Source: Patescibacteria group bacterium (lineage in GTDB: Bacteria; Patescibacteriota; Minisyncoccia; Phycocordibacterales; WO2-35-19). From it: 64,000 bases of DNA. Position numbers and translations under genes: made by a program. Shown piece by piece: positions 53,481 to 63,998 of the stretch. Each line of letters starts with the position of its first letter. Within the stretch, counting starts at the first letter, position 1. The stretch covers positions 2,517 to 66,516 of the forward strand of contig JBBTQO010000001.1 in the NCBI GenBank assembly GCA_038065655.1. The letters are read 5' to 3'. The notes under the pieces were generated by a model, which was given only the letters and a program-made list of their open reading frames with translations, was not told where the DNA came from and searched no databases.

Positions 53481-54908
53481 TTATTTAGCGACAACGACTT
53501 GGACACGTATTTTTGATGAATCAGTAGGAAATGTCCGTTTCCAAATAGGCCTTATTACTGCGGTTATACTCGAAATACCGGCAAATTCATCCATTATTTT
53601 CTGGAGGTCCTTTTTTGGAGCTCCTAGTAGTTTTTGGCTTATAGTATCTGTGTTTATCTCTGCCCAAGCTAGAACTCGGCCTTTTATTTGTAGGCTTATT
53701 TTCTCGCTACCCTCTAAATTGCCAGCTATCTTTTCAACCACTAAAGGAGAGAAATCAATAATTTGAGATTTTATATTATTCCAGCTATCAAATTCGGAAG
53801 CATAAGCTACAATTATTTTGTCTGATAATTCTTTTTTATTTAACATCAGGGCATAAGCGGTAATCTCTTTTCCTACCAAAACAGATGAAGACTCTTCTTT
53901 TTGAGGTAATTCTCTGGATTTGTAAATAATAGAATTGGATAATAATACTAACTCCACTGGTACTTTTGATTGCAATTCTTTTTCTAAATCGACTTGTATC
54001 TCTGTGTCGATATTTTGCATAGCTACTTGCTTTTCGGTTGGAAGCACCGTTTTCATTTTGCCAACGAATCCACCAGTCATCTCAGTGGCAGATCTAGCAT
54101 AAAAATTGTTGTAACGCTGAGGGTCGCTCTTAAAACCGGGGATAATAAAATCAGTCTTGCCTATGTTGTACTTTTCTCCCGGTTCATCGGCAAAAACTTC
54201 CACTTCTATACTGCCGGGAGTTTCGGCGCCATTTTTGGTTGTTTTGCCTGGTACCACTATTGATTCGGGGATTCTAAAAATAAGACCTTCTTTAGTTTCA
54301 AATCGGGTGCGAATGATTAATCTTTGAGGTTGGGAGGAAAAATTGTTGTAAACTATTATTTTACCAGAAGACTTAAGTTCAACAGCTTCCTCACCGGTAG
54401 CAGGGATAGAGACTGTTTTAGATTTGGCAAGTTTAACAACTTCATATCTAACACCCCCTTTCTCTATTTCTTTTACACCAGCTATCTCAGTGGCTACGTT
54501 AAGGTTTTGACTTCTGGGTGTGATATTGACTGTAGCTGAGGCAAACACAGTCATCATTCCTACTATGAAAATAACAATCAACACAGCAATAATGCTACCA
54601 AATATCCACGTTTTCTTTCTTGATTTGGTTGAGCCGTTATTGTAATTTGATACTTCTTTATTTTTTGGGTAATAATATTCGTAAGCGTTGTTGCTTTTAT
54701 TTTCTGTAATCTCTGACCCTTTGGTTTCAAAAGTCGGAGTATTCAATGGCATAGGGGCAATCTTTGGAGGCGGTGTTATTTCTGGTTTGATATTAATAGG
54801 CGCTTTTCTTTTGCCGCCATTGGGAATAGGAATATCCCTAATGCTTCGTCTATTGTCTGGTGGAGTAACATCACTAAATTGTATTCTTGGCATAACTTTA
54901 TTATACAC
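53481..54908 (-). CDS. Hypothetical membrane-anchored protein (Pro-rich cytoplasmic N-terminus, single TM, large extracytoplasmic domain)
   Basis: 475 aa; TM helix WIFGSIIAVLIVIFIVGMMTVF; no recognisable catalytic motif. Confidence 0.4.
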   Translation of the reverse strand: MYNKVMPRIQFSDVTPPDNRRSIRDIPIPNGGKRKAPINIKPEITPPPKIAPMPLNTPTFETKGSEITENKSNNAYEYYYPKNKEVSNYNNGSTKSRKKTWIFGSIIAVLIVIFIVGMMTVFASATVNITPRSQNLNVATEIAGVKEIEKGGVRYEVVKLAKSKTVSIPATGEEAVELKSSGKIIVYNNFSSQPQRLIIRTRFETKEGLIFRIPESIVVPGKTTKNGAETPGSIEVEVFADEPGEKYNIGKTDFIIPGFKSDPQRYNNFYARSATEMTGGFVGKMKTVLPTEKQVAMQNIDTEIQVDLEKELQSKVPVELVLLSNSIIYKSRELPQKEESSSVLVGKEITAYALMLNKKELSDKIIVAYASEFDSWNNIKSQIIDFSPLVVEKIAGNLEGSEKISLQIKGRVLAWAEINTDTISQKLLGAPKKDLQKIMDEFAGISSITAVIRPIWKRTFPTDSSKIRVQVVVAK

Positions 54909-54951: not shown

Positions 54952-55692
54952 TTAGTCGGTTAAATTGTTCCCAACGTCGGACGTTTGGATATCAAAATTG
55001 TTGGGGTTAAGCGATAACCATTCAAATATTTCTTTTTTTAATATTTTTGGATCTACGAAATATTCTGGAAAATCTTTTTTAGACAAAATTTCTTTTTCCA
55101 TTCTATTTTTCCCACAGTAATCTTGATAACTACTCCACCCATAATCTTCTAAAAACTTTTTTGCCTTTTCTATATCTTTGATACCATTTTCTTTCCACAT
55201 TGGATCAATAAGTTTTACTGGATTTAGATGAATGTAAGAAAAAATGTATTTTGAGTATGGATCAGTGTCTACATAAGAACCTTTAAAATTAGTTTCAAAA
55301 AGTCCACCAGTACGTTTATATTTTGTATTGAAATATTTTGAATAAGAAGTGCAAAGTTTTTTCATAAAAAGACTTATTCCGTTCCTTTTGTGTTTCTCAC
55401 TAATGTTGGACGTTTGTTCAGGGGAAATAGTTATGAGGAGATGAAAATGATTTGGCATGAGGACCCATGCACCGATTGAAACAATTGGTTTTCCTCTGTC
55501 AAATTCCCAAACATCTATTTTTCTTCTAACTATGTCCTCTCTAAAGTTAATATATTTTTTTGAGTTAGAGAGATATAGCATTTTTACAAATCTTTTTCTA
55601 TCATAATCATCAAGAAAAATATTTTGTTTACTATTTCCTCTATTATAGAGATGGTAAAACTCACCTTCTACAAAAGGTTCTTTTCTTTGCAT
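54952..55692 (-). CDS. Second REP-associated tyrosine transposase (RAYT; IS200-like Y1 transposase), distinct family from the one at 2690
   Basis: 246 aa; YHLYNRGN and HuH motif LMPNHFHLLITI; flanked by direct copies of cccaa(c/t)gtcggacgtttggatat (54962-54984 within its 3' end; 55713-55736 upstream of the start). Confidence 0.8.
   Translation of the reverse strand: MQRKEPFVEGEFYHLYNRGNSKQNIFLDDYDRKRFVKMLYLSNSKKYINFREDIVRRKIDVWEFDRGKPIVSIGAWVLMPNHFHLLITISPEQTSNISEKHKRNGISLFMKKLCTSYSKYFNTKYKRTGGLFETNFKGSYVDTDPYSKYIFSYIHLNPVKLIDPMWKENGIKDIEKAKKFLEDYGWSSYQDYCGKNRMEKEILSKKDFPEYFVDPKILKKEIFEWLSLNPNNFDIQTSDVGNNLTD
54962..54984. repeat. REP family-2 element (cccaacgtcggacgtttggatat) overlapping the RAYT-2 C-terminal codons
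   Basis: Near-palindromic core aacgtc-g-gacgtt; same sequence at 55713-55736; inverted doublet at 63598-63643. Confidence 0.6.
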
Positions 55693-55737: not shown

Positions 55738-57486
55738 TTATTCCAAAACTGCTTTGATGCGGCGGACGCCGAGAGAGACTGCTTCTTCTTTCAAAATTTT
55801 AAATTTACCGAGATCCTTTGTGTTAGAAATGTGGGGACCGCCGCAAAATTCCTTGGACCAAGCGGTCTCTAGCGAATCACCAACAAAGTAAATAGAAACT
55901 TCATTACCGTACTTATCACCAAAAGCGTGGACGGCGCCAGTTTTTTCGGCATCAATTTTTTTCATTACAATTTTATTGACCGGCAGATTTTCTGAAATTT
56001 TTTGGTTAACTAAATCTTCAACTTTTTGTTTTTCTTCATCTGTCATTTTGCGGCCAAAACCAAAATCAAAACGCAATCGCTCACTATTGATGTTGCTCCC
56101 CTTCTGCCTGATAGGTTCACCCAAAATAATTTCAAGAGCTTGGCGTAAAAGATGAGTAGTAGTATGAAGTTTTTTTGTTTCTTCTCCCGCATCCGATAGT
56201 CCGCCCTTAAACATACCAGCGCTGGAAGTACGTGAAAGTTCTTGATGTTTTTTTAATTCTTCATTAAATTTATTCTCATCAATTTCCTCTCCTTTTTCTT
56301 TAGCTAATTCCTTGGTGAGCTCTAGTGGAAAACCATAAGAAGTGAAAAGAGTGAATGGATCTACTCCCTTTTCAAATTCTTTCAAACCATTTTCCAAAGT
56401 TTTTTCAAATTTTTCTTCTTCTTGAGATAAATTAGATAAAACAAAATCTTTATTTTTGTTTAATTCCGGATAAACATCTTTATATATTTCTATTACAACC
56501 TCGGCAATTTCTTTGGTGAAAGATTTGAGACCAAGCTGTTTGCCGTATCTTACTGCGCGTCTAATCAATCGGCGCAAAACATAACCTTGGCCCGTATTGG
56601 CTGGAGCAATCCCCTTTTCATCACCTAAAATAAAAGCAGAAGCTTTTAAATGATCGGCGATAATACGCATAGCTCTCACATTTTGACCCCCATATTTTTT
56701 ACCAGAGAGTTTTTCTATTTTTTGCATAATAGGCCAGAAAAGTTCTGTTTTATAATTATCATCCAATCCGTTCATTACCGCCAAAGTTCTTTCCAGGCCC
56801 ATTCCGGTGTCTACATTTTGTTGGGTTAGAGGTTCAAATTTGCCACCAGATGTTTTGTTATATTGCATAAAAACATCATTCCAGATTTCCAACCATTGGG
56901 GGTTATCATCATTAAAACTCTTAGGTACTTCTTTTGGATCTCCTACCCAATAAAACATTTCGGTGTCGGGTCCACATGGTCCTGTTTTCCCCGCTGGCCC
57001 CCACCAATTATTTTTTTTGGACAATTTAGCTATTCTTTTTTCTGGAATTCCCAGAGATTTCCATTTTTCAAATGCTTCCTCATCAAAAGGAGCATCATCA
57101 TCTCCTTGGAAAACTGAAACAGCAAGTCTGTTTTTATCAAGGTCGAGCCACTCCTTTGAGGTTAAAAATTCAAAACTCCACTCAATGGCTTCTTCTTTAA
57201 AATAATCTCCGAGCGACCAATTGCCGAGCATTTCAAAAAAAGTGTGATGACTACCATCCCCGACTTCATCTATATCTCCGGTCCTAATGCATTTCTGAAC
57301 ATCAGCAAGTCTATTTCCGGAAGGATGTTTTTCGCCTAAAAGATAAGGAACAAGTGGATGCATACCTGCGGTAGTAAAAAGTACTGACGGATCGTTTTCG
57401 GGCACTAAAGAAGAGCTCGGGATTATTTTATGCCCTTTCCCTTCAAAAAACTCTAAATATTTTTTTCTGATTTCTGCCGGGGTCAT
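55738..57486 (-). CDS. alaS: Alanine--tRNA ligase, short form lacking the C-terminal C-Ala domain
   Basis: 582 aa versus ~870 in typical bacteria; N-terminal catalytic motifs (..FTTAGMHPLVPYL..), editing-domain HxxxH and C (..TTHLLRQAL.., ..FCGGPH..). Confidence 0.85.
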   Translation of the reverse strand: MTPAEIRKKYLEFFEGKGHKIIPSSSLVPENDPSVLFTTAGMHPLVPYLLGEKHPSGNRLADVQKCIRTGDIDEVGDGSHHTFFEMLGNWSLGDYFKEEAIEWSFEFLTSKEWLDLDKNRLAVSVFQGDDDAPFDEEAFEKWKSLGIPEKRIAKLSKKNNWWGPAGKTGPCGPDTEMFYWVGDPKEVPKSFNDDNPQWLEIWNDVFMQYNKTSGGKFEPLTQQNVDTGMGLERTLAVMNGLDDNYKTELFWPIMQKIEKLSGKKYGGQNVRAMRIIADHLKASAFILGDEKGIAPANTGQGYVLRRLIRRAVRYGKQLGLKSFTKEIAEVVIEIYKDVYPELNKNKDFVLSNLSQEEEKFEKTLENGLKEFEKGVDPFTLFTSYGFPLELTKELAKEKGEEIDENKFNEELKKHQELSRTSSAGMFKGGLSDAGEETKKLHTTTHLLRQALEIILGEPIRQKGSNINSERLRFDFGFGRKMTDEEKQKVEDLVNQKISENLPVNKIVMKKIDAEKTGAVHAFGDKYGNEVSIYFVGDSLETAWSKEFCGGPHISNTKDLGKFKILKEEAVSLGVRRIKAVLE

Positions 57487-57490
57487 GTGG

Positions 57491-57898
57491 TTATTTTATA
57501 TTATTTAAATCTCCATTTAAAACAATTCCATCAAAAGAAACCAATTCATCATTGATGTATTTTTGGTTTGGTAGGGGGTTGAGAATAAAAATCTTATTAC
57601 CATTATGGTGAGCAAAAGCCATTTCAATAAATGTATTGGCTCCGATATAATTTTTAATATCACCTTTTGTGTAATTTGCTACCAAAATGGCATCTGATTT
57701 CTCAATCTTATTTAAATGTTCGTTTACAAGTCCTAATCCTTTTTTGGCTTCAATCCGACTTTTTCCATCTTCGGACCAATAGTCTACCCCGACAACTTTT
57801 ATTGGCATAAATACTTCGTGACCGTTTGCTTTGAGCTGTTTCTGAAACCCAACCATTTCATCGAAAAATTTTATTGATCCGCAAATTGTTATTTTCAT
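57491..57898 (-). CDS. DNPH1/Rcl-like 2'-deoxynucleoside 5'-phosphate N-hydrolase / nucleoside 2-deoxyribosyltransferase family protein (copy 1)
   Basis: 135 aa; N-terminal KITICGSIKF (Rcl VYFCGSIRGG) and catalytic-Glu region NYIGANTFIEMAFAHHNGNKIFIL (Rcl ..GVGYELGRAVALGKPIL). Confidence 0.6.
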   Translation of the reverse strand: MKITICGSIKFFDEMVGFQKQLKANGHEVFMPIKVVGVDYWSEDGKSRIEAKKGLGLVNEHLNKIEKSDAILVANYTKGDIKNYIGANTFIEMAFAHHNGNKIFILNPLPNQKYINDELVSFDGIVLNGDLNNIK

Positions 57899-57901
57899 AT
57901 A

Positions 57902-58369
57902 TTAAATTATTTTTAATTCTTTAAACCATTCATACATTACCGGCTCAAGTCCGGGATTTTGGTTCCATTCTTCTTCTGGGATTTCTTTTTTGTTGTATCT
58001 TTCTGTTTTATTTCCAAGCTCCCTTATTTGATCTTTGGTGTACCAATTTGCCTGTTTGGTCTCACTTTCACTTCTTTCAATATTACCTTCTATATTAACT
58101 TGATATATTTTCCAATAATGCCAAGTGCCACTTTCTCTTCTACAATGGTTTTCTTTCTTGCCCTCAATGACCAATTTTATTTCTTTTGTATCTAGACCAA
58201 CTTCTTCTTTCAGTTCTCGCATCGCTGATTCTTCAAATGTTTTGTCTCCATCTACGTGACCTGCTGGAATAGCAAAACCAAAAGGAAATTTTGCTCTTTC
58301 AATTAACAACAATTTATCATCTTTCCAAACTAACATCCCTACACTTGTGTGGTCGCAAACTTTAGACAT
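57902..58369 (-). CDS. NUDIX hydrolase
   Basis: 155 aa; Nudix box GHVDGDKTFEESAMRELKEEVGL (G-x5-E-x7-REUxEExGU). Confidence 0.8.
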   Translation of the reverse strand: MSKVCDHTSVGMLVWKDDKLLLIERAKFPFGFAIPAGHVDGDKTFEESAMRELKEEVGLDTKEIKLVIEGKKENHCRRESGTWHYWKIYQVNIEGNIERSESETKQANWYTKDQIRELGNKTERYNKKEIPEEEWNQNPGLEPVMYEWFKELKII

Positions 58370-58700
58370 ATTTTTTTATATTATTTACATAAGCCATTCC
58401 CATTTCCATCAAACAGTTTCCACCGATATAATTTTGGACTCCTTTTTTCTCTAGATTTACAATAAGAACTGCATCGCTCTCAAGAATATGTTTGTAATGT
58501 TGGCGAATATAATCGTTTTGCTTTTTCCATTCTGCGTGTTCACCAAGAGAAAGTGCTTCTACGATTTGTTGTTTATCTCCGCGAATATGAGCTTCATAAT
58601 CTGGATGTATCCAACCATCATAACCAAACTCACACAACTCATCTTTGTATTCAACCATTTCTTTTATAAAACTATTGCTCCCTAAAACATATATTTTCAT
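58362..58700 (-). CDS. DNPH1/Rcl-like nucleoside 2-deoxyribosyltransferase family protein (copy 2, paralog of 57491-57898)
   Basis: 112 aa; MKIYVLGSNSF N-terminus and NYIGGNCLMEMGMAYVNNIKKYV Glu motif; paralogous to copy 1. Confidence 0.55.
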   Translation of the reverse strand: MKIYVLGSNSFIKEMVEYKDELCEFGYDGWIHPDYEAHIRGDKQQIVEALSLGEHAEWKKQNDYIRQHYKHILESDAVLIVNLEKKGVQNYIGGNCLMEMGMAYVNNIKKYV

Positions 58701-58795
58701 ATCCCCATTTTACAACAAAAAAGCTTTATTTCCAATAATTGATTTTAGGCGGGTTTAAGGTTATATTTGTGGAACTATTATTTTAATTTATAAAA

Positions 58796-60064
58796 ATGAA
58801 TTACAAAAAAAAGGTTTTAAAAAATGGTTTGAGGATTGTAGTAGTACCCATGAAGGGCTCACCTTCGGTTACTGTTATGTCACTTATTGAGGCCGGTTCA
58901 AAATACGAAAACAAACAAAATAATGGTATTTCACATTTTTTGGAACATATGTGTTTTAAGGGGACGAACAAGAGAACCAAGGCTGGAGATATCGCTAAAG
59001 AATTTGATTCTCTTGGCGCTCAAAATAATGCTTTTACTGGCCCGGAAGTAACCGGTTATTGGGGCAAAGCACACAAAAAACATACAGATAAAATGTTGGA
59101 TATTACCGCTGATATGTATTTGAATCCAACTTTTCCTGAAAAAGATTTGGAGACTGAAAAAGGAGTAATAGTAGAAGAAATAAATATGTACGAAGATTTA
59201 CCTCAAATACTTGTAAATGAAGTTTTTGACAAACTTCTATATGGAGACCAACCGGCCGGATGGAGTGTCGCTGGTACCAAAGAAAATGTTCGCTCGTTTA
59301 ATAGGAATGATTTTATAAATTACAGGAAACAGCATTATGTGGCTTCTGCGACTACTATTGTTGTTGCTGGCGATGTGGATGAAAAAGATATATTTAAAAA
59401 AGTGGAAAAATATTTTGCTAATATCCCGAAAGGCAAGAAAACAGCTAAGAAAAAAGTTATTGAAAAACAAACATCACCAGCGGTAAGTGTCAAATTTAAA
59501 GAAACTGACCAGACCCATTTGGTTTTGGGAGTGCGGGCTTTTGGCCTTTATGACAAAAGAATACCAGTTCTTAATTTGTTATCGTCTATTTTGGGTAGAG
59601 GTATGAGTTCTCGACTTTTCCAAAAAATGAGATATCAACTTGGCATTTGTTATTATGTGAAATCTCACATTGAAAATCTTACCGACCATGGCTATATGGC
59701 TATCTCTGCTGGAGTTGATTCAAAAAGAGTTGGAGAGGCCATTAAAGGGATTTTAGAAGAGCTTACAAAAATCAGAGATGAAAAAGTTCCGGAAGAAGAA
59801 TTGCGTAAGGTTAAAGACCTTGTTATTGGAAGAATGTATCTAAGTTTGGAATCTTCAGATGCTTTGGCCAACTTTTTTGGCGGTCAGGAAATAATGAAAG
59901 AAAAAATAAAAACACCAAAAGAACTAGAGGAAGAAATTGAAAAAATAACTACCGCTGACATAGCAAAAGTGGCAAAAGAAGTTATCCAAAACAAAAAACT
60001 CAACCTTGCTATTGTTGGTAAATATAATGATGAATCTCGCTTCAAAAATATTCTGAAAGTTTAA
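58796..60064 (+). CDS. M16 family zinc metallopeptidase (insulinase/pitrilysin-like)
   Basis: 422 aa; inverted zinc-binding motif HFLEHM (HxxEH) and downstream E (..EE..). Confidence 0.8.
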   Translation: MNYKKKVLKNGLRIVVVPMKGSPSVTVMSLIEAGSKYENKQNNGISHFLEHMCFKGTNKRTKAGDIAKEFDSLGAQNNAFTGPEVTGYWGKAHKKHTDKMLDITADMYLNPTFPEKDLETEKGVIVEEINMYEDLPQILVNEVFDKLLYGDQPAGWSVAGTKENVRSFNRNDFINYRKQHYVASATTIVVAGDVDEKDIFKKVEKYFANIPKGKKTAKKKVIEKQTSPAVSVKFKETDQTHLVLGVRAFGLYDKRIPVLNLLSSILGRGMSSRLFQKMRYQLGICYYVKSHIENLTDHGYMAISAGVDSKRVGEAIKGILEELTKIRDEKVPEEELRKVKDLVIGRMYLSLESSDALANFFGGQEIMKEKIKTPKELEEEIEKITTADIAKVAKEVIQNKKLNLAIVGKYNDESRFKNILKV

Positions 60065-60748: not shown

Positions 60749-61378
60749 CTACTTTAATTTAACGAATGCAAAACCCGGATATTCAGTGAACTCAACTTTA
60801 TCACTTTCTTTTTTATGAATTCTAAACACAGATTGTCTTATCGGAATTACCATAACTCCTCTGGGTTTTAGAATTTTAACTAGATTTTTAGGAATTTCTT
60901 CAGCGGTGGCGTTTACCAAAATTCGGTCGAATTTTTCCTTCTCGCCAACGAATAATCGGCCGTCTTTGCATTTTATTTCCGCATTTGGGAAACCATATTT
61001 TTTTAAATTATTTTTTCCCATCCTCGCAAGTTCAGGGATGATTTCCAACCCAAGCACTTCTCCGTTCGGGACAAGATGAGCTATAAGAGCAGTCGTATAA
61101 CCAGATCCAGATCCGATATCAAGAACTTTATGATCCGGTTTTAAATCAATCAGTTCAAGCATGAAAGCAACTGTGGTTGGCTGGGAAATAGTTTGTCCAA
61201 AACCTATAGGCAAAGGATAATCTTCGTAAGCTTCATTTTTGTAATTAGTATTTACAAAATCTACCCGGTCAATTTTTTCAAATGTTTTCTTAATCCCAAG
61301 TGTCTGCAAGACCTTGGTCTCTTCTAAATGTCTAATTAATTGCTCTTTGGTATTCATTGGCGTATTTGCAATACTCAC
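60749..61378 (-). CDS. pcm: Protein-L-isoaspartate O-methyltransferase
   Basis: 209 aa; SAM motif VLDIGSGSGYTTALIAHLV and PIMT-type pre-motif ISQP. Confidence 0.8.
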   Translation of the reverse strand: MSIANTPMNTKEQLIRHLEETKVLQTLGIKKTFEKIDRVDFVNTNYKNEAYEDYPLPIGFGQTISQPTTVAFMLELIDLKPDHKVLDIGSGSGYTTALIAHLVPNGEVLGLEIIPELARMGKNNLKKYGFPNAEIKCKDGRLFVGEKEKFDRILVNATAEEIPKNLVKILKPRGVMVIPIRQSVFRIHKKESDKVEFTEYPGFAFVKLK

Positions 61379-62090
61379 AATTTGGATTGGCTTTGGGAAT
61401 GTCGTCAGAATCCAAACATTTTTTCATATTCATTAAGGTTTTTTCTACCCAATCATCTTTACCAGTGTAAGGAATAAGTTTGATATCAAATTCAAGTTTG
61501 CCGTCAAAAGCTTCCCTATCACGCTTGCCATTGCAATAAACAAAATAGCCGGTGTCAGAAACTTTTAAATCATTATGTCGTAAGAGCCACTGATAAACTT
61601 CCATTTGTCTTTTGTAGCCGTCTTGCCACTCGGCATCCAAATTTACTTCTTCATCTTTGCTAGTCGCTTTGTAATCAACCACTATTAATTCCCCGCTTCC
61701 TCCGTCAGCACCTTCGGCGTTTTTTTGCCAAATATCATCAACGGCGCCAAAAACCACAAAATTGGCTGGTTCAAAAAAGGCTTCCACACCTGTAAAATTT
61801 TCACGCCATTTTTCTATTCGTGTATCTTGAAATGGCACTGCGTCTATACCATAACTTTCCATAAGAGGATGGGGAGTTTTTTGTTTGCGATGAATATCAA
61901 ATTCTTTTTTAAGCAAGGTATCAACGGCACTATTTAAATTGAAAGGAAATCCTTGTGGCCGAGAAACACCGATTCGACGATCTAAATAAAAACATCTCGG
62001 GCACTCAACAAACAAATCAATCTTTGAGCGACTTACTTTAAAGGCTTCTTCTGCCTTTGGATTGTATAATTTTTTTCGGTAAAATGCCAT
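61332..62090 (-). CDS. PD-(D/E)XK superfamily nuclease with N- and C-terminal Cys pairs (Cas4/RecB-like fold; standalone)
   Basis: 252 aa; core ..GAVDDIW...IVVDYKATS.. (D...D/E-x-K); Cys motifs ECPRCFY (N-term) and NPNCEYCKY (C-term) suggest a metal/Fe-S site. Confidence 0.55.
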   Translation of the reverse strand: MAFYRKKLYNPKAEEAFKVSRSKIDLFVECPRCFYLDRRIGVSRPQGFPFNLNSAVDTLLKKEFDIHRKQKTPHPLMESYGIDAVPFQDTRIEKWRENFTGVEAFFEPANFVVFGAVDDIWQKNAEGADGGSGELIVVDYKATSKDEEVNLDAEWQDGYKRQMEVYQWLLRHNDLKVSDTGYFVYCNGKRDREAFDGKLEFDIKLIPYTGKDDWVEKTLMNMKKCLDSDDIPKANPNCEYCKYANEYQRAIN

Positions 62091-62091
62091 T

Positions 62092-62922
62092 TCACTTTTG
62101 AATCAAATCTATTTCGGCCAGCATTTTGGAAATTTTTTCGTCGGAAAGACCAGCCTGTTTGAGAATGTCGGGGTTGTCTTTGGCTTGTTTGCAAAGGACG
62201 ATGCCAGCCTGCATCAAAAGCTTTTCATCACTGGGAGTGCTTGAGTTGAGACAAGTAATAGGGTGCAAATGTGCTTCTTCAATCAGATCCTGCAAGTTGC
62301 CAACTTCTGGATAATTCCAACCGACTAATTTCATATTTCTGCATTTAGCGTACTTGATAGCGGATTCGGAAAATTTAGTATTGGTCACGAGCCAACCTTC
62401 GCTCATTTTTTTATTTTGACTAAACTGTTCAAATTCCTGATTTTCTAAATCATCCCATCTGGCTTTTATATAAAGCGCAATTTTGAGGTCTGATTTGATA
62501 CCGAGCTCATTGTGAAATTTGGCTTCAACAAAAATTAATTTTTCTTTGTTCCAAGCAACAATATCAATCTCGTGGTCGGCGCATTCTCCCTTAGCAATAA
62601 AATCAGTGGTGGTTTCAAACCCTTTGGCTCTGAAAATTTCTGCCACGAATTGTTCAAAAGGAAAACCGGTTGGACCAAGTTCCATCACTGCGCGACGAAG
62701 CGAATATCTAGCGGCGGCCGGGCTCTCTTCTTTGCCTAAAAGTTGAAAGGCGTGTCTGTAAATATCTCTAGTGGTATCACCGTCTTTGAGCTCATTTTCT
62801 ATTTGGCTAACAATTTTTTCAGTAATTTCTGAGCCGGCCTGAGCTCGCAATAAAGAATCTTTTAATTTTTGAGGGTTAAATTCTTCTCTTTCCCCTATTG
62901 CCTTTATTATATATTTTGCCAT
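62092..62922 (-). CDS. ATP-cone domain fused to Mrr-like restriction-endonuclease catalytic domain, with C-terminal HhH-like tail
   Basis: Start chosen at MAKYIIKA. ATP-cone (IIKAIGEREEFNPQKLKDSLLRA..). Mrr_cat-like core FVAEIFRAKGFETTTDFIAKGECADHEIDIVAWNKEKLIFVEAKFH (D...D-x..E-x-K). C-terminal LMQAGIVL..ILKQAGLSDEKI HhH-like. Confidence 0.55.
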   Translation of the reverse strand: MAKYIIKAIGEREEFNPQKLKDSLLRAQAGSEITEKIVSQIENELKDGDTTRDIYRHAFQLLGKEESPAAARYSLRRAVMELGPTGFPFEQFVAEIFRAKGFETTTDFIAKGECADHEIDIVAWNKEKLIFVEAKFHNELGIKSDLKIALYIKARWDDLENQEFEQFSQNKKMSEGWLVTNTKFSESAIKYAKCRNMKLVGWNYPEVGNLQDLIEEAHLHPITCLNSSTPSDEKLLMQAGIVLCKQAKDNPDILKQAGLSDEKISKMLAEIDLIQK

Positions 62923-62924
62923 CA

Positions 62925-63998
62925 TTAATCTATTATACCACCCCCCAAACAAATTTCACCATCATATAAAACCAAAGATTGACCGGGAGAGATGCCTATT
63001 TGAGGTTGGTCAAAAATGACTCTTGTTTGCCCGTCCTTGATTTGAATTTTGCATTTTATTTTTTCTTGACGGTATCGGATGCGACAAGATAAATTTTTGT
63101 TTGGGATTTTTCCGATTAAATTTATATCCTTGATAGAAATTTCTTGGGACAAATTTGACGACCGTCCAAAATGTCGTAACTCTTGTTTTGAACTTACTGT
63201 TATCAAGTTTTTTTCAACATTTTTAGCAATTACATACAAAGGCACTTCGCTCTCTGTTTTTTGGGTAATGGTAAAGCCGTGGCGTTCGCCGATAGTGAAA
63301 AAGAGAGCACCGTTGTGGTGGCCGATTATTTCCCCATCCAGATCTAAAACGTCACCTCTTTTTTGAGGAATATATCTGGCCAAAAATTCTTTCATATTAA
63401 TTTTGCCCAAAAAGCAAAGCCCTTGGCTATCCTTCCTTGTTTCTTGTGGCAGGCCAAATTTACCTGCAAGTTTTCGAACTTCTGATTTTTGCAGATGGCC
63501 GATAGGAAAAAGAATGTGTTTAAGTTGTTCTTGGGTTAAGGTCCAGAGGAAGTATGATTGGTCTTTGTTTTTATCAATACCTTCAAGAAGCTGATTTCCC
63601 AATGTCCGACGTTTGCAACGGTTCCCAACGTCGGACATTGGGGGCATTCTTGCATAGTGTCCGGTAGCTACAAAATCAGCGCCATTTTTTAAAGCAAATT
63701 TTAGAAAGTGGCCAAACTTTATTTCTTTATTGCACATCACGTCTGGATTGGGAGTCCGCCCTTGCCTGTATTCATCAATCATATAATCAACCACTTCTTT
63801 TTTATATTCTTTTTCTAAATCAAGAGTGATGAAAGGAATATTTAAAATCGCGGCCACCTTCATGGCGCTCCGCCTATCTTCCTTCCAACTGCAAGGATAA
63901 CCTTCTGGTGTCCAAGCCTTAATAAAAACTCCAGTCACATCATAGCCATCTTTTTGCAACAAAGTTACTGAAACAGCGCTATCTACTCCGCCCGACAA
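62925..63998 (-). CDS. mnmA: tRNA-specific 2-thiouridylase MnmA (5' end runs off the window), carrying an in-frame REP family-2 doublet
   Basis: PP-loop SGGVDSAV, ..GHYAR.., NKDQSYFL, C-terminal domain. The ORF-finder start is a TTG; the true start is likely beyond coordinate 64000. The insert MPPMSDVGNRCKRRTLGN is encoded by the palindromic repeat at 63598-63643. Confidence 0.85.
   Translation of the reverse strand: MSGGVDSAVSVTLLQKDGYDVTGVFIKAWTPEGYPCSWKEDRRSAMKVAAILNIPFITLDLEKEYKKEVVDYMIDEYRQGRTPNPDVMCNKEIKFGHFLKFALKNGADFVATGHYARMPPMSDVGNRCKRRTLGNQLLEGIDKNKDQSYFLWTLTQEQLKHILFPIGHLQKSEVRKLAGKFGLPQETRKDSQGLCFLGKINMKEFLARYIPQKRGDVLDLDGEIIGHHNGALFFTIGERHGFTITQKTESEVPLYVIAKNVEKNLITVSSKQELRHFGRSSNLSQEISIKDINLIGKIPNKNLSCRIRYRQEKIKCKIQIKDGQTRVIFDQPQIGISPGQSLVLYDGEICLGGGIID
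63598..63643. repeat. REP family-2 inverted doublet (perfect 16-bp arms cccaatgtccgacgtt / aacgtcggacattggg) inserted in-frame in mnmA
   Basis: Arms are exact reverse complements separated by tgcaacggttccc; 48 nt total, a multiple of 3, in a variable loop of MnmA between GHYAR and NKDQSYFL. Confidence 0.7.

Follow-up and report, generated by a model that had tools for sequence, protein, structure and literature searches.

A candidate nucleotide-dismantling cassette of nucleoside 2-deoxyribosyltransferase-like and Nudix genes in a patescibacterial genome

Three small genes, packed one behind the other on the minus strand of a genome fragment from a Patescibacteria group bacterium, are the subject of this article. 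The fragment, which we call the window, is a stretch of 64,000 nucleotides from assembly GCA_038065655.1 (contig JBBTQO010000001.1, positions 2,517 to 66,516 of the forward strand), and all coordinates given here count from its first letter. In the direction of transcription the genes are B (58362-58700), N (57902-58369) and A (57491-57898). B and A encode proteins of the nucleoside 2-deoxyribosyltransferase (NDT) superfamily, each belonging to a subfamily that we call by the same letter. N encodes a Nudix hydrolase of 155 residues, from an orthologue group of about that size which travels with NDT-like genes. A is intact at 135 residues; B has 112, where 142 to 146 are the norm for its subfamily. 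A preliminary description of this DNA had reported three tightly packed open reading frames (ORFs), and they lie exactly where it put them, with B and N overlapping by 8 nucleotides and N and A separated by a gap of 3. Elsewhere in the text, L numbers denote loci and P numbers denote proteins.

A and B are paralogs, as that description had proposed, and BLASTP aligns them at 31% identity (E = 2e-13). We considered a recent tandem duplication and rejected it, since the identity between them is so low and each belongs to a separately conserved family. The A family comprises 587 proteins, mostly of 134 to 135 residues and 60-76% identical; the B family comprises 460, normally of 142 to 146 residues and 60-77% identical. 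Some databases name a few members 'nucleoside 2-deoxyribosyltransferase'. The AlphaFold2 model of A (predicted local distance difference test score, pLDDT, 94.3) has the flavodoxin-like alpha/beta fold of the NDT superfamily, with a five-stranded parallel sheet, and is closest to NDT, DNPH1 and MilB structures. Its top Foldseek matches are NDT, BcmB and DNPH1, in agreement with a scored structural comparison in which NDTs match best and the SARM1 TIR domain (11.8), YtoQ (11.7), MilB (10.9), Rcl/DNPH1 (9.6) and LOG-like proteins (9.2-9.4) follow. That the outer proteins belong with NDT and DNPH1 and not with the LOG/SLOG family, as first suggested, is borne out: they do not combine a PGGxGTxxE motif with LOG-type proteins as nearest structural match, and LOG-like proteins rank below NDT and DNPH1 among the structural matches of A.

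Two motifs had been assigned to both outer proteins at the outset. The catalytic one, IGxN..E.A, is indeed present in both, and its Glu is invariant within each family (Glu92 in A, Glu99 in B). This Glu, the nucleophile of the superfamily, follows beta-4 in a G-x-x-x-x-x-E-x-G-x-A context and is conserved in all six of the NDT-like subfamilies we distinguish. The N-terminal CGS motif fared less evenly, being present in A (ICGSIKF) and replaced in B by VLGSNSF.

Individual residues were placed by aligning family profiles, with hhalign and by hand, to the single sequences of human DNPH1 and L. leichmannii NDT (both checked against PDB chains), not by superposing coordinates. The correspondences score weakly yet are mutually consistent, and we use them for residue correspondence only. 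Glu92 of A and Glu99 of B align with DNPH1 Glu104 and NDT Glu98, the nucleophile. The C6-G-S-I-K10 loop of A falls on C26-G-S-I-R30 of DNPH1, a loop whose backbone binds the 5'-phosphate (PMC10483697). At the usual general-acid position, Asp80 of DNPH1 and Asp72 of NDT, both proteins have an invariant histidine (His61 in A, His68 in B), and this histidine is conserved across all six subfamilies. DNPH1 Ser98 and NDT Asp92 are matched by an uncharged, space-saving glycine (Gly86 in A, Gly93 in B), and DNPH1 Tyr24, the position that sets sugar preference in MilB, by Thr4 in A and Tyr4 in B. A also has Pro32 and Asp69. In place of the Tyr/Asp/Glu triad, A has Thr4, His61 and Glu92 and B has Tyr4, His68 and Glu99, so that of the DNPH1 residues Tyr24, Asp80 and Glu104 only the Glu is kept in A, and the Glu and Tyr in B. 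Judging by these alignments, both proteins belong to the NDT superfamily and retain its nucleophile, and neither is a DNPH1 orthologue.

The same positions say something about likely substrates. In DNPH1 the 5'-phosphate site is formed by backbone NH groups of the Ile29-Arg30-Gly31 loop, by Ser98 and by Ser128' from the partner subunit (PMC10483697). An uncharged, space-saving residue at the 5'-OH/phosphate position has been described for monophosphate-specific members of the superfamily, and the same argument has been made for DmtZ (PMC12884076). The want of an acidic residue at this position in A and B, together with the DNPH1-like N-terminal loop, fits a 5'-phosphorylated substrate. As for the sugar, the F17Y substitution in MilB reverses its specificity from cytidine monophosphate (CMP) to dCMP, the choice of Tyr or non-Tyr controlling deoxy versus ribo (PMC4081090, PMC7308715). 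With Tyr in B and Thr in A, the two proteins may differ in sugar preference. B is a second, non-redundant paralog, and the pair may differ in the sugar or base they prefer.

The middle gene had been credited with a canonical Nudix box, and this is largely right. N matches PF00293 in Pfam at 63.2 bits against a cut-off of 21.1, and its box runs G37...R51-E52-L-K-E55-E56-V-G-L, to be compared with the consensus Gx5Ex7REUxEExGU. The REUxEExGU half is intact and invariant among 32 distinct N orthologues. The first Glu of the box, that of Gx5E, is Lys43 in N and is unconserved among the same orthologues, a minor deviation. Other residues are invariant in the group: C5, D6, R25, H38, D40, N74, C76, R77, R78, H84, E103, K105 and E142. 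Among them Cys5, His38, Cys76 and His84, along with an N74-x-C-R-R78 motif outside the Nudix box, may form a metal site or a specificity element.

What holds these genes together is the company they keep in other genomes. We assembled 80 loci around A relatives from GTDB and 80 around B relatives from metagenomes, in each case the best 80 matches of iterated hidden Markov models (taxon labels of some of the metagenome-assembled genomes (MAGs) may be unreliable, as with the third-party-annotation (TPA) bins labelled 'Gammaproteobacteria'). In 58 of the 80 B loci a Nudix or NTPase_I-T hydrolase is fused to the NDT-like gene, adjacent to it or no more than 700 bp away, where 0.015 is expected from background; the same holds for 26 of the 80 A loci, where 0.036 is expected. 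Among the 22 B loci with no such hydrolase nearby, 13 have less than 500 bp of flank on one side. The three genes had been expected to co-occur in relatives, and they do so widely, including as fusions. The NDT-like subfamilies number at least six (A, B, Ap, C154, D147 and E156); they have their motifs in common and combine in every order: N-A, A-N, B-N-A, Ap-A-N, Ap-N-B, B-N-E156, B-N-C154, B-D147-N, B-A-N and B-NTPase-C154 were all seen. The bracketing of a Nudix gene by two DNPH1-like genes, which the preliminary description called unusual, turns out to be a common layout, with a three-part cassette in 22 of the 80 B loci. When neighbours were clustered in search of other conserved partners (deoC, deoB, kinases), 8 was the highest number of loci, out of about 170, in which any other family appeared, and the cassette itself is the conserved unit; AlaRS, UDG, ATP-cone+Mrr_cat, ABC transporter and YchF genes recur as local synteny. 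Relatives are carried by 460 GTDB species, mainly Patescibacteria (the Candidate Phyla Radiation, CPR) and DPANN archaea, all of them lineages of ultra-small cells.

Two side observations come from the same loci. A gene for a CYTH-domain protein (a triphosphate tunnel metalloenzyme) lies directly upstream of a B-family gene at L105:76-633 (plus strand) and at 3 other loci, and may be another triphosphate-acting partner of NDT-like genes. In a Minisyncoccia genome, a further NDT-related family (PF14359 DUF4406, PF24963 and, weakly, PF09152) is found at L090:8353-8429 (minus strand), about 4 kb from a B-D147 pair; such genomes seem rich in NDT-fold paralogs.

Closer to home, the cassette of the window occupies a syntenic slot between an M16 peptidase gene (58796-60064, plus strand) and alaS, the gene for alanyl-tRNA synthetase (AlaRS), which lies outside the module at 55738-57486 on the minus strand. 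Locus L171 has the same trio in the same slot: M16 (78% identical), an intact B of 145 residues, Nudix (80%), A (73%) and AlaRS. L147 has M16, B, Nudix (90%) and AlaRS, without A. In L085-87 the order is M16, M29, B, NTPase_I-T, a third NDT-like gene (C154) and AlaRS. From the varying contents of the slot it follows that 'NDT-like plus nucleoside triphosphate (NTP) hydrolase' is kept while the actual genes are swapped, and the presence of NTPase_I-T where other genomes have Nudix is a non-orthologous replacement. The identities are also mosaic. N is 90% identical to its L147 counterpart, but B and AlaRS are only 60% and 54% identical to theirs, and the closest intact relative of the window B (77%) is in L085-87, next to a hydrolase of the NTPase_I-T type. 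Related genomes may thus have recombined or exchanged cassettes.

Gene fusions carry the argument further. In-frame fusions of A to Nudix occur in L034 (294 aa), P0244 and P0295; of Nudix to B in L137 and L139 (291 aa); and of A to NTPase_I-T in L062, L067, L081 and 10 cluster representatives. An A-like domain is fused to Maf in P0384 and to MazG in P0242, the latter marginally (22.1 bits, the cut-off being 22). When 1.84 billion representatives of clusters at 50% identity were searched with a profile, 2,514 relatives came up at E<=1e-3 and 964 at the stricter E<=1e-10. When 20 longer relatives were scanned, 10 proved to carry NTPase_I-T, 2 Nudix, 1 Maf and 1 MazG, and several were NDT-NDT tandems. 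The nucleotide pyrophosphatases recognised as house-cleaning enzymes are those of the Nudix, ITPase/YjjX-type, Maf and all-alpha MazG families (PMC3899018). That fusions to this group recur is the strongest evidence we have that the NDT-like domain would act on nucleotides, in series with NTP hydrolysis. One more of the 20, P0367 (628 aa), is a class II aminoacyl-tRNA synthetase of the Asp/Lys/Asn type that ends in an A-like NDT domain. Neighbouring genes may have been read through here, or the fusion may be genuine; the cassette of the window likewise abuts a tRNA synthetase gene, alaS.

The window's own copy of B is damaged. Compared with its family it has an in-frame internal deletion of 99 nucleotides (33 codons), with the junction at 58377-58385 on the minus strand (codons Asn-Asn|Ile, from the DNA alignment). 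The protein ends in ...AYVNN-IKKYV*, where relatives read ...AYVNN-KKIFLLN...GDLxN-IKKYV*. Aligned with the syntenic L147, the deletion is clean and lies between two A-rich, mutually similar flanks; the 99 nucleotides are present in both L147 and L171. A frameshift, with the C terminus continuing in another frame, was considered as the cause of the short B and rejected on this alignment. Nor is the deletion an assembly error, because a second 112-residue allele, 99% identical, sits on another contig (P0121). B keeps Tyr4, His68, Asp76 and Glu99 and is without the conserved LNDxP..Y..EI motif, the last beta-strand and the C-terminal helix, the last two being where alignment to the A model places the missing 33 residues. 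In its general form, K-K-I-x-x-L-N-x-x-P...Y..E-E, the lost motif is conserved throughout the six related subfamilies except in Ap, where only K-P-I-Y can be made out. The C-terminal region of DNPH1 and of NDTs contributes to the active site of the partner subunit (PMC10483697), and the region of DNPH1 Ser128' falls in the deleted part. The window B is thus probably crippled or inactive, which would leave N and A as the working pair in this genome.

Our reading of the locus, which we put at somewhat better than even, is that it is a cassette of two housekeeping enzymes, of a kind typical for CPR and DPANN, in which N and then A would take nucleotides apart to base and sugar 5-phosphate, most probably for sanitation. 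Going by its family, N would hydrolyse a nucleoside triphosphate, or a nucleoside diphosphate with some other group attached (NDP-X), to the 5'-monophosphate. Going by its fold, motifs and gene linkage, A would then break the N-glycosidic bond of that monophosphate with Glu92 as nucleophile and His61 standing in for the usual general-acid Asp, and the products would be the free base and (deoxy)ribose 5-phosphate. The preliminary description had proposed a two-step route from dNTP to base plus deoxyribose 5-phosphate (dR5P). Its logic, an NTP pyrophosphatase followed by N-glycosidic cleavage, is well supported by comparative genomics and has a published phage precedent in DutZ-DmtZ (PMC12884076), though the B copy that was to share in it is damaged here. 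The favoured role would be the clearing of non-canonical or surplus nucleotides from a scavenged pool, with recovery of base and sugar phosphate as a by-product. We prefer sanitation because all the partner enzymes are of the house-cleaning kind and because DNPH1 is described as a nucleotide-pool sanitiser (PMC10483697, PMC10603095).

A number of points weigh against this reading. Both NDT-like proteins fall short of Pfam: A scores 13.9 bits on PF15891, where the gathering threshold is 30 (E = 0.072), and B has no Pfam hit (of their relatives, Ap scores 26.1 and P0242 27.7 against 28.8, and P0277 passes with 30.1). NCBIfam offers no meaningful match for A or B, and searches of PDB sequences with A, B and the A-family profile gave chance-level matches or none. 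The hhalign comparisons of A and B profiles with the single DNPH1 and NDT templates are weak (E 0.0031-0.13, among them 0.038 and 0.0031). Of the three triad residues A keeps just one, with Thr for Tyr and His for Asp, which might mean that catalysis has been lost or that the chemistry is a different one. On the side of the hydrolases, the best NCBIfam match of N is a weak one to NAD diphosphatase, and the substrate range of Nudix enzymes is too broad for a substrate to be read off sequence. E. coli YjjX is reported to release diphosphate and not monophosphate, so it would not directly feed a monophosphate glycosidase. No NTP hydrolase is nearby in 48 of the 80 A loci, and A is evidently not dependent on adjacency. 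The sets of loci are also partly redundant: the 75 B-subfamily ORFs of 120-165 aa that were typed over all loci include 66 distinct ones.

How does the cassette compare with what is known? Its closest characterised analogue is DutZ-DmtZ of the Z-genome PurZ0 phages, in which DutZ is a dNTP pyrophosphatase and DmtZ an NDT-family dAMP hydrolase/transferase (PMC12884076). There, too, an NTP pyrophosphatase is adjacent or fused to an enzyme of the NDT superfamily, which breaks the N-glycosidic bond of the 5'-monophosphate so formed; the middle residue of the triad departs from the canonical one (to Asn in DmtZ, to His in A and B), and the residues of the 5'-phosphate pocket are uncharged and space-saving. 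DutZ, however, is Dut-like and not a Nudix, NTPase_I-T, Maf or MazG enzyme, and the phage system is viral and serves dZTP synthesis, whereas the A/B family is cellular, essentially absent from viral collections and found in a housekeeping context. The likeness is one of architecture, drawn as an analogy only. DNPH1 (Rcl) shares with A and B the fold and the position of the Glu nucleophile and, with A, the N-terminal loop (C-G-S-I-K beside C26-G27-S28-I29-R30), and its role as a sanitiser matches the partner enzymes. The NDTs (PF05014; 1f8x, 7o62, 6evs) differ in several respects. A and B have Gly for the 5'-OH-binding Asp, His for the triad Asp and sub-threshold Pfam scores, and their linkage to NTP pyrophosphatases points to phosphorylated substrates. 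MilB, BcmB and BlsM, the N-glycosidases of CMP and hydroxymethyl-CMP (PMC4081090), are NDT-fold hydrolases of ribonucleoside 5'-monophosphates in which ribo specificity goes with a residue other than Tyr close to the Glu; A has Thr there. As for the house-cleaning pyrophosphatases (Nudix/MutT, YjjX-type NTPase_I-T, Maf and MazG), N is itself a Nudix enzyme, NTPase_I-T fills its slot in relatives, and fusions to the NDT-like domain are seen for all four families. These enzymes are normally described as standing alone, though, and a dedicated downstream glycosidase partner lies outside the classical picture.

Two rival readings, neither of them likely, keep much of this chemistry and change its purpose or outcome. 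One, a close variant of the sanitation reading, would have the cassette feed the cell, scavenged nucleotides being turned into bases for salvage and into (deoxy)ribose 5-phosphate as a source of carbon and energy. This would suit symbionts without de novo nucleotide synthesis, which is in keeping with a family spread over 460 GTDB species, mainly Patescibacteria and DPANN, in a housekeeping context, and the proposed products would be directly usable. CPR and DPANN are reported to catabolise nucleotides by a route through AMP phosphorylase and RuBisCO. Yet hydrolysing NTPs for carbon wastes energy, deoC, deoB and pentose-phosphate genes do not recur beside the cassette when neighbours are clustered, and the partners (Nudix, NTPase_I-T, Maf and MazG) are typical low-flux house-cleaning enzymes and not bulk catabolic ones (PMC3899018). 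The other, a serious rival although we give it about the same small weight, makes A and B phospho(deoxy)ribosyltransferases that exchange one base for another (NMP + base' -> N'MP + base) and so rebalance the scavenged pool, with the NTP pyrophosphatase supplying the donor monophosphates. NDTs are indeed the best structural matches, a Pro after beta-2 is kept in all six subfamilies, and DmtZ, so far the one dR5P transferase known in nature, is itself encoded next to a dNTP pyrophosphatase or fused with it (PMC12884076). The equivalence of that Pro, however, rests on hhalign, which aligns it with DNPH1 His56; mutating it in DmtZ left transfer unchanged (PMC12884076); and there are no linked genes that would supply acceptor bases. 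A bolder version of the transferase idea, which we consider more doubtful still, would make all six NDT-like subfamilies natural phospho(deoxy)ribosyltransferases or glycosidases that differ in base and sugar specificity, B with its Tyr acting on deoxy substrates and A and the others, with Thr or Val, on ribo substrates, assembled as hetero-oligomers docked to the house-cleaning NTP pyrophosphatase in a hitherto unrecognised nucleotide-editing hub built on a His-based triad. Such a hub, if true, would let organisms without de novo nucleotide synthesis sanitise and interconvert scavenged nucleotides at the level of the monophosphate.

The remaining rivals abandon this chemistry or the link between the genes. 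In an NAD/ADP-ribose module, the NDT/TIR-like proteins would cleave the nicotinamide-ribose bond of NAD or nicotinamide mononucleotide (NMN), with the Nudix protein as an ADP-ribose or NAD diphosphatase; we think such a module improbable here, as the repeated fusion to house-cleaning NTP pyrophosphatases argues against it. Still less probable is the anti-phage module that the preliminary description had entertained, one that would deplete (d)NTPs or destroy modified phage nucleotides upon infection. Nucleotide depletion is a known logic of defence, and N weakly matches the PADLOC candidate model PDC-S07 (E=1.2e-5). Against this, neither A nor B has a hit in PADLOC or PHROGs, and the cassette, with no sensor or regulatory component, sits in a syntenic housekeeping slot between alaS and the M16 peptidase gene, near ribosomal protein genes. 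The proteins, 60-77% identical over many lineages, do not resemble defence genes, which evolve fast. Viral collections hardly contain the family: there are only 2 distant relatives in 2.9 million viral contigs, and matches in phage genomes are weak. The suggestion therefore finds no support. A phage origin of the genes was a separate candidate, and it was rejected after the viral-contig scan and tblastn against phage genomes gave only a few distant matches. Last and least likely comes the idea that the genes have no functional link and are packed together simply because CPR genomes are compact. Such genomes do have long co-directional arrays, and alaS follows A after 4 nucleotides. The linkage, however, is about 10- to 50-fold above background and persists while the flanks vary, and the independent fusions, in both orders and with four hydrolase families, effectively refute this idea.

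We return, then, to the sanitation reading and what it would mean. The pairing of an NTP pyrophosphatase with an NDT-fold monophosphate glycosidase is already known from DutZ-DmtZ. What appears to be new here, going by sequence, is a large cellular clade, concentrated in CPR and DPANN, in which His replaces Asp in the triad, a cassette holds several paralogs and one hydrolase can take the place of another; a literature search found no paper on these subfamilies or on a linkage of NDT-like and Nudix genes in CPR. The clade is a large, uncharacterised NDT-fold group, some 2,500 clusters at 50% identity, systematically coupled to house-cleaning pyrophosphatases by operon and by fusion. CPR and DPANN are thought to depend on scavenged nucleotides, and how that pool is kept clean and balanced is poorly understood. 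Should the proposed chemistry hold, it would add a second, irreversible step to the sanitation of prokaryotic nucleotide pools, in which the monophosphate is destroyed or re-used, a step so far known from human DNPH1 and one phage system. Members of the clade are also small, stable candidate biocatalysts for the synthesis of nucleotide analogues.

The surroundings of the cassette are of the housekeeping kind: genes for ribosomal proteins S13 and S11, AlaRS, the M16 peptidase, a family-4-type uracil-DNA glycosylase (UDG), PCMT and a PD-(D/E)XK nuclease. A promoter-like site, sigma-70-like by consensus match only (TTGGAA-17-TAAAAT, 58707-58735, minus strand), lies within the 95-nucleotide spacer upstream of B. 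No terminator-like site was found on the minus strand between B, N, A and alaS, the alaS start codon is 4 nucleotides past the stop of A, and alaS and the cassette are probably co-transcribed. The cassette is the head of a longer co-directional array; outside the cassette genes, all ORFs with 100 aa or more are on the same strand as far down as about 45.8 kb. A MAG labelled 'Patescibacteria group bacterium' has an annotated protein identical to A.

Several of the neighbours are curious in their own right. A typical bacterial AlaRS has about 870 residues and a C-terminal extension. The AlaRS of the window has 582 and no such extension, consists of PF01411 (catalytic) and PF07973 (second additional) domains alone and has relatives of 588 residues. 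Downstream of alaS, a 246-residue ORF (54952-55692, minus strand) has a sub-threshold match to PF01797, the IS200-like Y1 transposase (E=4e-4, 20.9 bits against 23), and might be a tyrosine transposase-like gene that is either domesticated or REP-associated. A 475-residue ORF inside the co-directional array (53481-54908, minus strand) has no Pfam match at E<=1e-3. On the other side of the cassette, the PCMT ORF (60749-61378, minus strand), with its listed GTG start, overlaps the upstream PD-(D/E)XK nuclease gene (61332-62090, minus strand) by 47 nucleotides; translation of PCMT probably begins further downstream. Close to both its ends the nuclease carries Cys motifs (CPRC...CEYC), a pattern that suggests an iron-sulfur cluster like that of Cas4 or AddB. 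Next to it, at 62092-62952 on the minus strand, is a 286-residue fusion of an ATP-cone domain to an Mrr_cat restriction-endonuclease-like domain. The joining of an allosteric nucleotide-sensing domain to a nuclease fold is an odd combination, and a homologue lies near the cassette in 8 other loci, for example at L140:2573-3430.

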